This document shows positions 19,486 through 24,870 of a stretch of DNA of 64,000 nucleotides, piece by piece. This DNA comes from Armatimonadota bacterium (GTDB taxonomy: Bacteria > Armatimonadota > HRBIN16). Below the pieces are notes generated by a model. That model searched no databases, was not told the origin of the DNA, and worked only from the letters and a program-made list of their open reading frames with translations. The position numbers and the translations under genes are program-made. The first letter of the stretch is position 1, and every line of letters starts with the position of its first letter. The stretch spans positions 320,001 to 384,000 of the forward strand of contig OY781964.1 in the NCBI GenBank assembly GCA_963677485.1, given 5' to 3'.

Positions 19486-20280
19486 ATGATTTGTAACAGA
19501 TTAGCCGGTCAGGTGGCCATTGTCACCGGCGCGGCGCAAGGGCTTGGCGAAGCCATCGCCTACCGATTGGCAGCAGAAGGCTGTCTCGGCGTCACTATCG
19601 CCGATATGCAGCAAGATAAGGCGCAGATCGTGGCCGATAAACTGGTCGCCGATTATCCCAACTGTAAATCGCTGGCCGTCGCGGTCGATGTGACCAAACC
19701 AGAGCAGGTCGCTGAGATGGTCAAAGCCACCACCGATGCATTCGGTAAGCTGGACATCATGGTCTCCAACGCCGGCATCTTGATTGCTGGCGACATCCTT
19801 GATTTCGACCCGGCCAAGTGGGCCAAAGTGGTGGAAGTCAACCTGATGGGCTACATGCACTGCGCTCAAGCGGCGGCCAAAGTGATGGAGCCAAACAAGA
19901 GCGGTGTGATCATTCAGATCAACAGCAAGTCCGGGCTGAAGGGCTCCTTCCGAAGCAGCGCCTACGCGGCCAGCAAGTTCGGCGGCATCGGCCTGACCCA
20001 GTCCATCGCGATGGACCTGGCACCATACGGCATCCGCGTGCTCTCCATCTGCCCTGGCAACCTGCTGGACGGTACCCTTTGGAGCGAGAGCCTGTTTGTG
20101 CAGTATGCCGAGAAGTGGGGACTGACGGTGGACGAAGTGCGCAAGAAATACACCGACCAGGTTCCGCTGGGCCGCGGCTGCACCTACGAGGATGTCACCA
20201 ACATGGTGTCCTTCTTGGCCAGCGATGAAGCCAGCTACATGACCGGTGAGGCGATCCGCGTCGCCGGCGGGCAACTGTAG
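19486..20280 (+). CDS. srlD: sorbitol-6-phosphate 2-dehydrogenase (SDR)
   Basis: TGAAQGLG, QINSKSG, YAASKFGG, GNLL and VPLGRGC, characteristic of SrlD/GutD. Confidence 0.85.
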   Translation: MICNRLAGQVAIVTGAAQGLGEAIAYRLAAEGCLGVTIADMQQDKAQIVADKLVADYPNCKSLAVAVDVTKPEQVAEMVKATTDAFGKLDIMVSNAGILIAGDILDFDPAKWAKVVEVNLMGYMHCAQAAAKVMEPNKSGVIIQINSKSGLKGSFRSSAYAASKFGGIGLTQSIAMDLAPYGIRVLSICPGNLLDGTLWSESLFVQYAEKWGLTVDEVRKKYTDQVPLGRGCTYEDVTNMVSFLASDEASYMTGEAIRVAGGQL

Positions 20281-20294
20281 GGTTAGCGATTCAT

Positions 20295-20329
20295 ATGCCC
20301 GTTGCGGCTGATGCTGCAACGGGCATTTT
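20295..20329 (+). terminator. intrinsic terminator after srlD
   Basis: ATGCCCGTTGCGGC-TGAT-GCTGCAACGGGCAT stem followed by a short T run. Confidence 0.65.
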
Positions 20330-20411
20330 ACGTTTTAGGGGAATGGGACGGATGGGACGGATTGGGCGGATCGGACCAATTAAACACATCGGTCCAATCC
20401 GTCCGATGATC

Positions 20412-21656
20412 CTACCAGTTGGTCTCCGGAGTCGCCGGATCATCATCGGACGTTTGCAAATCGGCGTCCTCTTCGTAGTTCTGCACCACATCCTCGGCGA
20501 TCAGGTTGACCTCAGCATTATAAAGCCGCCGGAAGTCCCATGCGTTGATCCAGGAGCGGATATACCGCCTCATGCCGACGCTGGGCAGCACCTCGGGACG
20601 CTGCGAAAGCTCGGGAGCCTCCCACGAGTAGGCCTCGCTGTATAAAGCACGCACGCATCGGTAGATGTCATCCACCTGCTCGCCAGTATACGGTCGGATA
20701 GGGTTACCCATGCGCATGATCAGCTCCATACCCTTTTGAGCCAAAGGTACCACCGCGGCGTCACGGCTGACTGCCAGCTTGACAGGTATCTTCTCCAGGT
20801 CATTGCGCTTGACCAGTATCTGCCCCGCGTAGTCCGTGGTGATCGTCAGCACCGATCCCATACCGAATATCTGGCTGCCATATCCCAGTAAATGTGCCAG
20901 GTGGGCATATGCTTGAGCGCGCTGACGCAAGCTATACCGCGAGATGATCTCACCTTCATCCAGAAGAATCAACCAGCCTGAATACCCCGCAGAGCGGAAG
21001 AACCTGGAGAGGAACTCAAACCGCTGGAGCTCCTGGGCTTTCACCTGTGCGCGAACCCTAACACCCGGATGGCCCATATCACGCAGTGCATTGCGAATCT
21101 CGGCCACCTTCATCGGATAGCCGGTCCATTCGTTCACGATCTGCTGCCGAACCTCTTCGTCGGTAGTATTCACGAATATCTGCAGCGTCTGTGCATACCG
21201 TGGGTCAATCCCCTGGGTTATGTTCACCCACTCCTGCAGTTCGTCGAAGTATGGAGCACGGTCGCTGTGGTAGGTGTGGGCGATCTCGGTCAGAGCGGGG
21301 CCGACTTTACCGCTCACGATGGCGGATTCCACGCAGGTTCGATACACCTTCTTGAGGTCGTTAAGTGGAGTCTCCTTGTTCAGCACAATACTCGACACCA
21401 CGAACTTCCGTTCGAGGGCAGCATGGCGGAAATACTCCAGCCAGTGGGACTTGCCGGTGCCAAAATCGCCTTCCAGCAGCAGACCCTGAGGGAGCGTGCC
21501 CGTTTCCCATACACTTCCCAACCCAGCGAGCAACTGATCGAATGATTCCAAAAGGTCGCTTTGCAGCGGTGGCAACTGCCTGACCACATCACGGTTAGGC
21601 ACACCAGCACGCAACGCCTCGATGGCCCTGCGTTTTTCAATCAATGGGTCAGACAT
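20412..21656 (-). CDS. BrxD/DUF2791-like P-loop ATPase (intact Walker A and B)
   Basis: IEALRAGVP N-terminal signature, GDFGTGKSH Walker A, WLILLDEGE Walker B; ATG at 21656 after AAGGAG. Confidence 0.85.
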   Translation of the reverse strand: MSDPLIEKRRAIEALRAGVPNRDVVRQLPPLQSDLLESFDQLLAGLGSVWETGTLPQGLLLEGDFGTGKSHWLEYFRHAALERKFVVSSIVLNKETPLNDLKKVYRTCVESAIVSGKVGPALTEIAHTYHSDRAPYFDELQEWVNITQGIDPRYAQTLQIFVNTTDEEVRQQIVNEWTGYPMKVAEIRNALRDMGHPGVRVRAQVKAQELQRFEFLSRFFRSAGYSGWLILLDEGEIISRYSLRQRAQAYAHLAHLLGYGSQIFGMGSVLTITTDYAGQILVKRNDLEKIPVKLAVSRDAAVVPLAQKGMELIMRMGNPIRPYTGEQVDDIYRCVRALYSEAYSWEAPELSQRPEVLPSVGMRRYIRSWINAWDFRRLYNAEVNLIAEDVVQNYEEDADLQTSDDDPATPETNW

Positions 21657-21666
21657 GAGTATCTCC

Positions 21667-22620
21667 TTATCCAGCACTCTGCACCAAGCTCACCATGGCA
21701 TTCAACGGATTGTCGCGAGAGAGATCATGAACCTCGTTCACTAAGCGCATTTTCAACGCCGCGTAGATATCCATGCTCAGTTTTGGGTGGCTGATAAACT
21801 CCGGCCCTACCACAGCCACCAGCAGCATGTGTGATAGTTCATCGGTGTCGTCGATAAAAGCCCTCAGCATCTCATAACTGTCCAGCACCGAATTGCGTGT
21901 ATATCGCAAACCCGAGCCGAACTGGCTGTGATCCGTCAAAATGGCTTGCATGTCGAGTATCAACACTGTTCCCTTGTATCCCATGAAGAACTGCCAAGCA
22001 GAGAGCGATCGCAGAAGCAGGCGCGCGTTATGTCGTCCGATGCGCTGGAATATCTGCAGCCTCTTCAACTCAGTCAGGCTCACGGGCTCGCCCTGCAGCC
22101 ATTGGATGATGAGCTCCGATTCGGCCGCTGCCACGCTCTGTGAATCGACCGCGGCGTAACACAATAACGCCATTGCGGTACGAAACTCCCTGCACAGCTT
22201 GTAGTTGCGCAGCACCCAGTGCGTGATCAGGCGTTTTATCTCGTTCAGCAGGTCTGAACGCGACCGACCGTTCCACTCCGCGATGCCATCCACGTCGTCG
22301 AGGGCCTGGCCCACTTCAATGTGAATCCCGTGCGCTGCCAGCAGAATGCGCAGATAGCAGTCGATGTCACCGCGCCAGTCCACCTGACGAGCGATCGCGA
22401 AGAAAACCTCTTGCACCAGATGAGCCTTGGTGACAGCGGCATCGACTTGTGCGATGAATAACTGTCTGTCATGAGCTGCACTGGCGACGGCCGACTTCAC
22501 ATACTCCGCATCTTCAGCCGACACAACTGCCACCTTCACAGCGGCACCACCCTGCGGTATATACTCCGTGAGATACTCGCGGTCCAGATGCGTTAACCAC
22601 TCCGACACGCTGATACTCAT
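21667..22620 (-). CDS. BrxD/DUF2791-like protein with degenerate P-loop
   Basis: GGAAVKVAVV in place of Walker A; IIQWLQGE, ARLLLRSL, GYKGTVLILD, SYEMLRAFIDD and YAALKMRL match DUF2791 blocks; GGAGG RBS. Confidence 0.75.
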   Translation of the reverse strand: MSISVSEWLTHLDREYLTEYIPQGGAAVKVAVVSAEDAEYVKSAVASAAHDRQLFIAQVDAAVTKAHLVQEVFFAIARQVDWRGDIDCYLRILLAAHGIHIEVGQALDDVDGIAEWNGRSRSDLLNEIKRLITHWVLRNYKLCREFRTAMALLCYAAVDSQSVAAAESELIIQWLQGEPVSLTELKRLQIFQRIGRHNARLLLRSLSAWQFFMGYKGTVLILDMQAILTDHSQFGSGLRYTRNSVLDSYEMLRAFIDDTDELSHMLLVAVVGPEFISHPKLSMDIYAALKMRLVNEVHDLSRDNPLNAMVSLVQSAG

Positions 22621-22631
22621 ACCAGGCCTCC

Positions 22632-23417
22632 TTATCGTTTAGCCGGTGTGAACTTGATGGCCACATACTCTTTTTCGAGTCCATCTCGGGTTACGAAGAG
22701 CAGTTTTTTCACTCCACGCTCACGTGACGAGCTGCTGGCGGGCAGGCTCATGTGGAACCCATCTTTAGTGAGGGTCTTCTCAGCCTGCTCTAGGAAATAG
22801 ATATCACGCGTAAAGTCCAGCAGGGCGTAGTCCTTGTTTGCTCCCGGTAGAAGGGTCAGCACTTCGTAGATTTTGATCAAAGGTAGGTCGATGTATTCGT
22901 CCCTCACCTTGCCTGGCATCGCCCGCAACAGTTTATAAGCATCGAAAAGCGTCTCGATGAAGCGGTCAGGGTTGGTTTTCGGGTCCTTAGCTTGCAACTT
23001 CTTTAACTGGGCCGCTAATACTTCAGCACGGATACCATAGTCCAACCGTTTGTCGATACGTACCGCGGGCATCTCCGGCTCGCGGCGGATCAACACAGGA
23101 TAGCAGAAGATGATACCGTCACGCTCATACATCGTGACCCCAGCCGCCTCCGCGGCAGCCTTCAGCTCAGGTATGAAATCGCCATTTGGCTGCATGTAGC
23201 TTGAAGCATCAAACGTGAACTCAGGACACTCTTCGGCGCGTAGCTGGAGGCACTCGGTGGCGGTAACCGCCGCTTGACGCAGCTTTTCGATGTCGCGCAG
23301 ATTGCCGATGGCCACCGCTGTCTGCAATTTATGTAATGCCGCGGTGGCCTTCTTGGCTTGATCGAGCCATCCCGATAACTGCTTTCCGTATTCGTCCAAC
23401 TGTTGACTTAACGTCAT
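22632..23417 (-). CDS. hypothetical protein (helical N-terminus, possible winged-helix C-terminus), first gene of the ATPase cassette
   Basis: 261 aa with a GGGAG RBS; 11 bp from the next gene. Confidence 0.8.
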   Translation of the reverse strand: MTLSQQLDEYGKQLSGWLDQAKKATAALHKLQTAVAIGNLRDIEKLRQAAVTATECLQLRAEECPEFTFDASSYMQPNGDFIPELKAAAEAAGVTMYERDGIIFCYPVLIRREPEMPAVRIDKRLDYGIRAEVLAAQLKKLQAKDPKTNPDRFIETLFDAYKLLRAMPGKVRDEYIDLPLIKIYEVLTLLPGANKDYALLDFTRDIYFLEQAEKTLTKDGFHMSLPASSSSRERGVKKLLFVTRDGLEKEYVAIKFTPAKR

Positions 23418-23573
23418 TTGGTTCTCCCGTCGTGTTATATTTCAGGCAACAAGCGTTCTCATGCCAGTGCCATATGTTACTTATGATCCGTTAATATCTT
23501 AGCTGATTTGTGCTCCAACGTCTACGGAAGGGAATCGGACGGATGCGACGGATCGGACCGATGACCCATTTGC

Positions 23574-23627
23574 CGTATCAGCTCCTGCATCACCAGACCG
23601 TTGGCGGTGAGCTGCTTGCGGTTGCGG
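23574..23627 (-). pseudogene. 54-bp relic copy of the 3' end of the neighbouring glycoside hydrolase gene
   Basis: Matches 23951-24004; encodes RNRKQLTANGLVMQELIR versus RNRKELTANGLVMQELIR. Confidence 0.55.
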
Positions 23628-23684
23628 GATGATTGACACAGTCCATTCTCCATACATATCTGCAGAGTCAGTACATCGTCGATT

Positions 23685-23828
23685 CCGCGACATAAATGTC
23701 TCGGCTATTGGTCATCAAGCCTGCTGAAGCAGTCTGGGTGCAGCATCAGACGCACACTTACAGGGCGAAGCCCTGCAGCCTGCTTCAGCAGGCTTGGCCG
23801 GTCAATAGCCATGTGCTTTAGCACGTGG
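23685..23828. repeat. inverted pair of REP-like elements (AATAGCCGAGACATTTATGTCGCGG family)
   Basis: Arms 23685-23735 and 23778-23828 in opposite orientation, each with an internal palindrome such as AGCCTGCTTCAGCAGGCT. Confidence 0.75.
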
Positions 23829-23931
23829 TATGGCTGACTGTGCTAACTCCACTGCACCGCGCGGCTGATTAATAGCGGCCGGATTTGACGGATCGGACCA
23901 ATCGCGCTTAATGCGATATCGCCACCCCACC

Positions 23932-24870
23932 CTACCGCATGCCAGAACCTCGTATCAGCTCCTGCATCACCAGCCCGTTGGCGGTCAACTCCTTGCGGTT
24001 GCGGAACAGCCCGTAATCTACACCCTCGGCGGTGATGGCGTAGTGAACGCAGAAGCACTTCACGCGCGCTGCGATCAGCGCCAGGGAGGCCTGCTTCAGC
24101 AGCCTGCTGTCGGCATTACGGATCGCACCATACTCCGTCACCACCACATCACGACCCTCCAGCCCATACCGATTCATGGTCTGCCGCAACTGCTTTATGG
24201 CCAGCGGGATCTGCTCAGGCGGATTGTACGGGTGATACCCCACTCCATCCAGCCAACGCCGACTGGCACACACCTCCAGCGCCTTCGGGAACCAGTAGAG
24301 CGCGCTGTAGCTCTTCATCTCATCCTCATGCCACTCAGCGGCCAGACCACCGCTGATCACCGGTATGTTCGGGCTCTCCGCTTTCAACATCTGGATGGCG
24401 GGGTCGAGAATCCGCCGACCGAACTCCGCGGCTCTGACGGTCCATGGATCGATGTTGTCCATCCAAAAGTCGTAAGTGTCAGGCTCGTTCCATATCTCCC
24501 ATGCTGCGATTTCCGCCAGGTGGCCATAACGTCTGGCCACCTGACGAAGGTATTCGCTCCACAGCTCTGGTTTGTCAGGCGCCATTTTACTGCTGTGACG
24601 GGAGTTGCTCCAGGCAGGTGACCCATACAAGCAGACGATCAGTCGGTGCCTATCCTGCTTAGCTGTGTTGACGGCTGCATCCGGCTCCGACCAGTCATAC
24701 CGGCCTGGCTGAGATTCGATCACCGACCAATGCCACATGTCACGGACGGCAATCTGCCGTCCCGCAGCCATCTGTTGCATCAGCGGAGCGTTGTCCACGT
24801 AGGCGTTCTGCCCATCACCATAGTTATGGCTCTGGGCATGAATGCCTATCAATGGCAGGTTGAGCCTCAT
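23932..24870 (-). CDS. clan GH-A glycoside hydrolase (GH5/GH39-like)
   Basis: WSVIESQPGRYDW, WEIWNEPD acid/base, YHPY and VTEYG nucleophile motifs. Confidence 0.8.
   Translation of the reverse strand: MRLNLPLIGIHAQSHNYGDGQNAYVDNAPLMQQMAAGRQIAVRDMWHWSVIESQPGRYDWSEPDAAVNTAKQDRHRLIVCLYGSPAWSNSRHSSKMAPDKPELWSEYLRQVARRYGHLAEIAAWEIWNEPDTYDFWMDNIDPWTVRAAEFGRRILDPAIQMLKAESPNIPVISGGLAAEWHEDEMKSYSALYWFPKALEVCASRRWLDGVGYHPYNPPEQIPLAIKQLRQTMNRYGLEGRDVVVTEYGAIRNADSRLLKQASLALIAARVKCFCVHYAITAEGVDYGLFRNRKELTANGLVMQELIRGSGMR

Follow-up and report, generated by a model that had tools for sequence, protein, structure and literature searches.

What becomes of a defence-type ATPase operon that has lost its helicase? 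The question is raised by three co-oriented genes, here called A, B and C, at positions 20412..23417 on the minus strand of a 64,000-nucleotide stretch (the window) of the genome of an Armatimonadota bacterium (contig OY781964.1). This genome, G000, is 5.22 Mb long, consists of a single contig and is 97.4% complete. An earlier description of the window, hereafter the sequence-only reading, took the trio for a distinct minimal system composed of an unfamiliar 261-amino-acid protein and two BrxD/DUF2791-like ATPases. Comparison with related genomes leads to another view. The best overall explanation, to which we assign a probability of about 0.6, is that the trio descends, with its helicase lost, from an undescribed defence-type cassette combining an ATPase with a helicase, and that its core is probably still functional.

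Three-gene and five-gene forms of the cassette

Gene A (22632..23417, minus strand, ATG start at 23417) encodes 261 amino acids of an uncharacterised family. Gene B (21667..22620, minus strand, ATG start at 22620) encodes a 317-amino-acid protein that appears to be an inactive paralogue of C, and gene C (20412..21656, minus strand) a BrxD/SngB-like ATPase of 414 amino acids, of the AAA+ type found in origin recognition complex (ORC) and Cdc6 proteins. The start of C was placed at the ATG at 21656, as in its homologues; the mechanical open reading frame (ORF) opens at a GTG at 21677. Eleven nucleotides separate the A stop from the B start and 10 the B stop from the C ATG, and inspection of the sequence found a purine-rich site resembling a ribosome-binding site (RBS) ahead of each start (GGGAGA, AAGGAGG and AAGGAGA for A, B and C respectively), in agreement with the sequence-only reading.

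Loci were gathered around gene A in Armatimonadota and Abditibacteriota genomes and their ORFs labelled by blastp and tblastn. After six same-place duplicates and three contig-end fragments had been dropped, 35 resolved loci were left. Genes A and B lay upstream of C in all 35, in the same order and with tight spacing. The commonest arrangement (24/35) had two further genes, D and E, downstream of C; A-B-C-E was found twice and A-B-C alone nine times. Protein D is ~180 amino acids long and has no Pfam or PADLOC match; among PDB sequences its profile had no credible match (best E-value 0.26), and in a protein atlas only unnamed clusters matched. Protein E is an SNF2 helicase of ~490–740 amino acids, for which the best PADLOC models are the ZorD and DpdE helicases (1e-58 to 3e-76).

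The same architecture was seen in an independent metagenome sample, assembled by means of a conserved C motif. This yielded 599 stretches, 510 of them confirmed, and the best 80 were scored with profiles built from alignments made for this analysis. A and B stood upstream of C in 40 of the 42 loci with at least 2.1 kb of upstream DNA, the other two having A together with a B/C-like frame of unusual length. Where the contig ran on for 800 nt or more beyond C, D came next (33 of 45 loci); where it ran on for 1.5 kb or more, E followed (27 of 38), leaving 11 loci without E. A single distant A protein, used as query against metagenome contigs, gave no match. The co-occurrence of the three genes in other genomes, which the sequence-only reading had set as a test of itself, is therefore upheld: they form an operon wherever there was DNA enough to see it.

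Some loci depart from the common pattern. In three metagenome contigs (L137, L138 and L139), A is followed by a 2.4-kb frame that scores as C, with no separate B at that place; in two of the three a B-like frame lies ~5 kb downstream. Fusion of B with C, or rearrangement, may account for this variant. One locus counted among the 24 with five genes (L034 8001-13552, on a metagenome-assembled genome (MAG) contig of an uncultured bacterium) has its A, B, D and E frames each split in two, and is either a decaying copy or the product of assembly errors. Two or three copies or fragments of A, on separate contigs, were found in G039 (contigs C34, C98 and C99; L005, L008 and L009) and in one MAG (L021/L022), so a genome can have the cassette in more than one copy.

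The origin of the three-gene form in the window was revealed by two genomes of the same genus. In G002 one contig end (L014) holds A and the first part of B beside the glycosidase cluster; a second contig supplies the final part of B, with C, D and E next in line and after them converging genes for a short-chain dehydrogenase/reductase (SDR), an alcohol dehydrogenase (ADH)-like protein and an aldolase. The products are 64.7% (C), 88% (SDR), 79.5% (ADH-like) and 93.7% (aldolase) identical in amino acid sequence to those of the window. Because these flanks match those of the window, G002 has the full five-gene cassette at the corresponding site. In the window the C stop is followed by 4 nt, by a 69-nt repeat of the GGACGGAT type (20339..20407) and then by the shared terminator; the repeat stands in the place of D and E and, judged from this arrangement, is the deletion junction. 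In G001 both flanks are present on one contig at 85–90% nucleotide identity, A was not found, and only ~820 bp of dispersed repeats lie between the flanks. At one chromosomal site the genus therefore offers a series of five genes (G002), three (the window) and none (G001).

D and E are lacking from the whole genome as well as from the locus. A tblastn search of G000 with three E and two D queries gave nothing at an E-value of 0.01 or below, and a separate genome search also found neither. The SNF2 domain (PF00176) had no match in G000; it was present in 14/14 control genomes and in all nine of nine other Armatimonadota checked. The simplest history gives the common ancestor of the genus all five genes, from which D and E were deleted here and the whole set in G001. 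We conclude that the window, with its orthologous A, B and C in the cassette order, very probably holds a truncated derivative of the A-B-C-D-E cassette. It is in this respect that the sequence-only reading has to be revised, since the trio does not stand as a minimal system of its own.

The A-B-C-D-SNF2 cassette appears to be unnamed. PADLOC-DB 2.0 has no name for it, and no description was found in a literature search that took in neither supplements nor the current DefenseFinder models; a recent name may exist. The trio was found outside BREX and Shango loci, as had been predicted, and matched no named PADLOC 2.0 system beyond weak similarity to BrxD and SngB.

Proteins of the core

Both B and C exceed the Pfam gathering cut-off (22.2 bits) for PF10923 (BrxC_BrxD, DUF2791), C with 65.1 bits (7.3e-18) and B with 35.6 bits (6.6e-9), the match of B covering profile positions 145–331 only. 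The family assignment made by the sequence-only reading was thus right for both proteins; the description of both as ATPases holds for C alone. In an alignment of 24 homologues B has GGSAVK where the P-loop should be, and the Walker B glutamate is also absent. When B and C were compared by hhalign they matched with a probability of 97.3% (E-value 2.2e-11), with a gap at GxGKS. Since it has no P-loop, B is not an ATPase. It is best described, on its sequence, as a pseudo-ATPase, a dead paralogue of C with a BrxD-type fold.

Protein C has the motifs predicted for an active AAA+/P-loop ATPase; B does not. Across 24–25 homologues the invariant residues of C are F65, G66, G68 and K69 (Walker A), D233 and E234 (Walker B), R246 and R363. 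The window proteins were the reference rows of these alignments and therefore carry every invariant residue listed. The acidic C-terminal tail of C is kept in full in the window copy. C matched the PADLOC models for BrxD (4.9e-11) and SngB (2.5e-10), and scored 41.6 bits on the NCBIfam model BREX_BrxD (NF033438), for which the cut-off is 350. Among solved sequences those closest to the C profile were BrxC (0.0037) and the DnaC/DnaI helicase loaders (0.008–0.08), all weak matches confined to the P-loop region.

For protein A, searches of Pfam, PADLOC and NCBIfam found no family at an E-value of 0.1 or below. Its family is large, with 723 cluster representatives at E-values of 1e-3 or below, nearly all of ~260 amino acids. 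The 142 close relatives are 53–76% identical, and those with names come from Armatimonadota or Abditibacteriota MAGs. Some relatives come from Binatia or Nitrospinota, and protein-atlas neighbours were found in Pseudomonadota, Spirochaetota and Bacillota.

Structural models of A were confident, with a mean predicted local distance difference test score (pLDDT) of 88.3 for the full length and 90.4 for residues 68–261. They predict an N-terminal coiled-coil hairpin (residues ~3–63), an alpha+beta domain (~68–146) and a winged-helix-like domain (~147–260). Compared with solved folds, the last of these resembled many winged-helix chains with Z scores of 4.8–6.0, none reaching 8; the nearest winged helices belong to ORC, Cdc6, Cdt1, histones H1/H5, forkhead proteins, ESCRT-II and kleisins. 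Foldseek, run with the full model and with residues 68–261, found nothing in the PDB at an E-value of 1e-3 or below and nothing among viral models. Alignment of the full model with VIA-align matched a generic coiled-coil hairpin alone, and the A profile found only designed helical bundles among PDB sequences, by way of the coiled coil. A wide alignment revealed no conserved catalytic motif, and the models no catalytic fold. The alpha+beta domain had been considered as a PD-(D/E)xK nuclease from the order of its secondary structure; this was rejected, since the wide alignment shows no conservation of the acidic and lysine candidates. The sequence-only reading had offered A as a sensor or effector. 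On the predicted models a role as adaptor or in DNA binding fits better than one as effector.

Relationship to Shango, BREX and replication initiators

Shango, as described in PMC10250203, consists of the TerB-domain protein SngA, the ATPase SngB and the DEAD/DEAH helicase SngC, and has modest anti-phage activity. A complete Shango locus is present in G000, outside the window and ~2.9 Mb away (G000:C1:3277288-3281713; L020 12289-16714), with matches to SngA (1.5e-20), SngB (1.3e-158) and SngC (2.5e-223). The true SngB of this locus is the only other PF10923 gene of the genome, and SngC is its only full-length match to the BrxHI model. An ATPase_2/DUF234 gene lies ~1.2 kb upstream of the locus, with a PIG-L-family gene in between.

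The cassette is like Shango in being a small operon with a PF10923-type ATPase, a non-enzymatic first gene and, in its full form, a helicase of superfamily 2 (SF2). The differences are considerable. Protein A has no TerB domain, and hhalign gave a probability of 0.2% for its profile against the resident SngA. The cassette ATPase is duplicated, apparently as a dead and a live copy, and there is an additional small protein, D. The helicase of the full form is of the SNF2 kind rather than DEAD/Lhr-like, and the copy in the window has none. No helicase gene, of the DEAD/DEAH (SngC) type or otherwise, adjoins the cassette, the sole SngC being in the separate Shango locus. C and the resident SngB, 21–25% identical, can be aligned over both Walker motifs and the conserved arginines, but C scored 38 bits on the SngB model, over residues 37–132 only, as against 526.7 bits over the full length for the resident SngB.

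In type 2 BREX (bacteriophage exclusion), BrxD is an ORC/Cdc6 AAA+ ATPase that forms a tightly linked dyad with BrxHI and is a proposed helicase loader, according to PMC12839542. Going by that account, the full cassette shares with the dyad a stand-alone ORC/Cdc6-type AAA+ ATPase linked to a helicase; it differs in that its helicase comes from another SF2 family and that C falls far short of the NF033438 cut-off. PglZ (PF08665), found in 2/14 control genomes, had no match in G000 in a search that did not extend to PglX and PglW. The sequence-only reading had seen no BREX or Shango partners beside the trio, and this is borne out by the genome-wide absence of PglZ and SNF2 matches and by the distance to Shango, the window itself not having been scanned with PADLOC in full. 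The BREX-related 'BR' systems were also considered; as they are centred on DUF499 in the account of PMC12839542, this cassette is not one of them.

A more distant likeness is to the AAA+ initiator and helicase-loader clade (ORC/Cdc6, DnaA and DnaC/DnaI). The C profile gave weak matches to BrxC, DnaC/DnaI-type loaders and DnaA (E-values 0.004–0.17, P-loop region only), and the last domain of A resembles the winged helices of ORC, Cdc6 and Cdt1, among others (Z 5–6). The similarity is at the level of the superfamily only, however, and there is no origin-binding or replicative-helicase context, so that the likeness is one of analogy and not of membership.

Maintenance of the three-gene core

In the window the frames of A, B and C are intact, with their RBS-like sites and all family-invariant residues. 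The rate of change was compared with that of the five-gene cassette of G002, using three different outgroups. Lineage-specific substitutions numbered 14–18 in the window as against 19–25 in G002 for A, and 28–30 as against 36–41 for C (chi-square 0.5–2.5), revealing no excess in the window for either protein. The ratio of non-synonymous to synonymous substitution (dN/dS) could not be used for the window and G002, or for G004 and G006, two genomes of the same family with three-gene loci, since synonymous sites are saturated and the Nei-Gojobori method (NG86) yields no value.

Elsewhere in the family the ratio is informative. Among three species of Armatimonas, all in the three-gene state, dN/dS was 0.03–0.10 at dS of 0.38–0.95 for all three genes. 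When the three-gene state was placed on a tree of C (35 rows, from a quick IQ-TREE search) it required five changes, at least four of which were forced by branches with support of at least 95 in the approximate likelihood ratio test (SH-aLRT). Purifying selection on three-gene forms in other genomes suggests, as far as sequences can tell, that the core acts without its helicase. One further three-gene locus, in G006 (L019 5057-6942), has an IS21-type transposase/IstB pair immediately downstream of C; insertion sequences may have removed D and E there, as this arrangement hints.

Does the truncated core in this genome still do something useful? We lean towards the view that it does, and the chief alternative is that it is a dead remnant, the three genes having become functionless on deletion of D and E, too recently to have acquired stops, with full loss ahead. 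Several observations speak for a remnant: E and D, the likeliest of the five products to act on DNA, are missing from the entire genome; at the corresponding site G001 retains none of the five genes; A, B and C contain no effector domain; and the split frames of L034 indicate that cassette decay occurs. Against it stand the intact frames with every invariant residue, the lack of rate acceleration relative to G002, and the repeated origin of three-gene forms (at least four times), with the low dN/dS of the Armatimonas clade maintained at dS of up to 0.95. If the core were useless without its helicase, recurrent and constrained three-gene forms would be difficult to account for, and we consider a dead remnant rather improbable, although it is the strongest of the rivals.

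Distribution and neighbourhood

A search of 401 genomes of the phylum found A in 71; for high-quality genomes the count was 54 of 300 and for genera 53 of 207, and presence varied within genera. Neighbouring genes were surveyed at 30 loci, taking from the 212 ORFs within 5 kb the two nearest of at least 150 amino acids on each side (114 ORFs). At five of the 30 loci the cassette adjoins DarT, PIN, Cas3 and Cas5, HEPN and MNT, or M78-HTH genes, which is suggestive only, as there is no background rate with which to compare it; at three more it adjoins RHS, Hcp or DUF4058 genes. Individual cases include a cassette directly beside type I CRISPR-Cas genes for Cas3 and Cas5 (L043 1525-4462), one adjoined by a DarT toxin gene (L015 1521-2186) and one by a HEPN/nucleotidyltransferase pair (L050 11932-12986).

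Proposed function and its rivals

We favour, with some reservation, a role for the cassette family in defence against phages or plasmids, by analogy with its relatives. A defence-type reading is drawn from the membership of C in PF10923 with BrxD and SngB, the patchy distribution, the varied neighbourhoods and the match of E to ZorD and DpdE. In the mechanism we propose, B and C would form a dead/live ORC/Cdc6-like AAA+ assembly, on the analogy of the BrxD-BrxHI dyad and Shango. A would serve as a nucleic-acid-binding adaptor, and A-B-C would recognise foreign or aberrant DNA and load or activate the SNF2 motor E, which together with D would act on the DNA so recognised. The core in the window would then still work rather than lie in ruins, as a complex that uses ATP to bind or sense DNA. 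Without a helicase its output might be to occlude or remodel invading DNA alone, or to signal to another factor.

A bolder version holds that A-B-C is more than a loader for a helicase: an autonomous machine in which two ORC/Cdc6-like AAA+ proteins, one dead and one live, and a coiled-coil/winged-helix adaptor by themselves recognise invading DNA and neutralise it or signal its presence. Strong purifying selection on the core, in spite of four or more losses of the helicase and D, would then be accounted for. We regard it as a tentative proposal, with the odds against it.

A number of findings weigh against a functional, defence-type core. Every fold match of A is weak (Z of 6.3 or less), below the level at which the tool itself is to be trusted. 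The C proteins of G004 and G006 lie on a very long branch (1.43), which may reflect relaxed constraint. A recent deletion of D and E would leave intact ORFs and an unremarkable substitution rate just as well, and the deletion is undated. None of A, B and C was found to contain a nuclease or another effector domain, and it is not obvious what output the truncated form would have. A was absent from 13/13 searched genomes of a sister genus; since those genomes are without A and G001 has discarded all five genes, the cassette is dispensable. A tblastn search with A against plasmid and phage records gave no match, and most neighbours of the cassette are ordinary metabolic genes, the remaining loci of the 30 being metabolic or of no assigned function.

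The last two of these points bear on a second rival, that the cassette has no part in defence and is an accessory DNA-transaction module, concerned with repair, replication restart or the remodelling of chromatin or transcription, in which an ORC-like loader serves an SNF2 motor. SNF2 and ORC/Cdc6-type proteins have many housekeeping roles. The metabolic neighbours, here and at most loci, and the lack of A in plasmid and phage records would suit such a module, as would vertical inheritance at a stable site, indicated by the grouping of the window's family in one clade (support 99) and by the synteny of G000 and G002. Against it stand the patchy presence of the cassette, which is limited to 71 of 401 genomes in the phylum and varies within genera, and the toxin-antitoxin and CRISPR-Cas genes that adjoin 5/30 loci. 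Moreover, the sole characterised relatives of C, BrxD and SngB, come from anti-phage systems (PMC10250203 and PMC12839542). We therefore hold this explanation to be unlikely, and distinctly more so than a remnant.

The third rival is that the core works in trans with a helicase encoded elsewhere, such as the SngC of the resident Shango system, so that the system is split and not reduced. G000 does have a complete Shango with this BrxHI-type helicase (2.5e-223). The four three-gene genomes searched for the purpose (G004, G113, G302 and G401) contain neither a true SngB nor an E-type helicase, and their best matches to E are SNF2 proteins of ~1000–1090 amino acids, 35–40% identical. The lack of both extends to the Armatimonas genomes with the three-gene state. 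Because similar proteins of ~1070 amino acids occur in three of four five-gene genomes (G141, G177 and G181; not G106), they are no specific stand-in for E. Dependence on a resident Shango helicase as a general rule was rejected, three-gene genomes elsewhere being without a true SngB; and as the resident Shango is self-contained, with its own SngB to which C is only 21–25% identical, action in trans is very improbable here too. A helicase-less but probably functional core of a defence-type cassette thus remains the explanation that we prefer.

Flanks and repeats

The left flank of the cassette encodes a class II aldolase, an ADH-like protein and an SDR, and the right flank a protein resembling glycoside hydrolase family 10 (GH10; a weak match), a DUF5722 protein and an apiosidase-like protein. 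The cassette does, as first described, lie between a sugar-operon terminator and a glycosidase cluster. The terminator-like hairpin of the converging SDR gene (20295..20326, plus strand) is common to genomes of the genus and forms a conserved left border. On the other side, the intergenic region upstream of A (23418..23931) begins with ~110 nt of unique sequence directly before the gene, followed by a GGACGGAT half-element (23530-23562), copies of a dispersed palindromic element (23681-23879) and a further stretch of the GGACGGAT family (23877-23902).

The repeats that were said to bound the cassette are real; they are not peculiar to it. Together the two intergenic flanks gave 212 blastn matches across the genome. 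The 69-nt palindrome of the GGACGGAT type has eight genome copies by blastn and folds as DNA at -15.6 kcal/mol (z -2.9). An element of ~160 nt has 145 blastn matches, 18 of them with at least 70% coverage, and its 111-nt palindromic core folds at -36.6 kcal/mol (z -6.6). The repeats near the cassette belong to two dispersed palindromic families, resembling miniature inverted-repeat transposable elements (MITEs) or repetitive extragenic palindromic (REP) sequences, and are not cassette-specific ends. A mobile element with terminal repeats of its own was rejected, since the repeats occur genome-wide, no integrase or transposase adjoins and there is no break in composition, G+C content included. 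A scan of 20000-24200 against Rfam (E-value of 0.1 or below) gave no match. A sigma-70 consensus scan found no promoter-like site, the consensus being uninformative for this phylum.

Significance

BrxD/SngB-type ATPases are the least understood parts of type 2 BREX and Shango. The cassette brings together a live ATPase of this type, an apparently dead copy of it, an SNF2 motor and a protein from a new family, and it is common, with 723 cluster representatives of A and at least 510 confirmed metagenome loci of C. What the window adds is the series of five-gene, three-gene and empty states at one site, and evidence that a three-gene core can persist alone. Such a series within one genus is a natural dissection, and gives a handle on what these ATPases sense and do. 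Even if it had no part in defence, the cassette would be a DNA-transaction module of an ORC-like/SNF2 kind not described before. If the core is indeed autonomous, A-B-C would be an ancestral sensing module common to Shango, type 2 BREX and this cassette.

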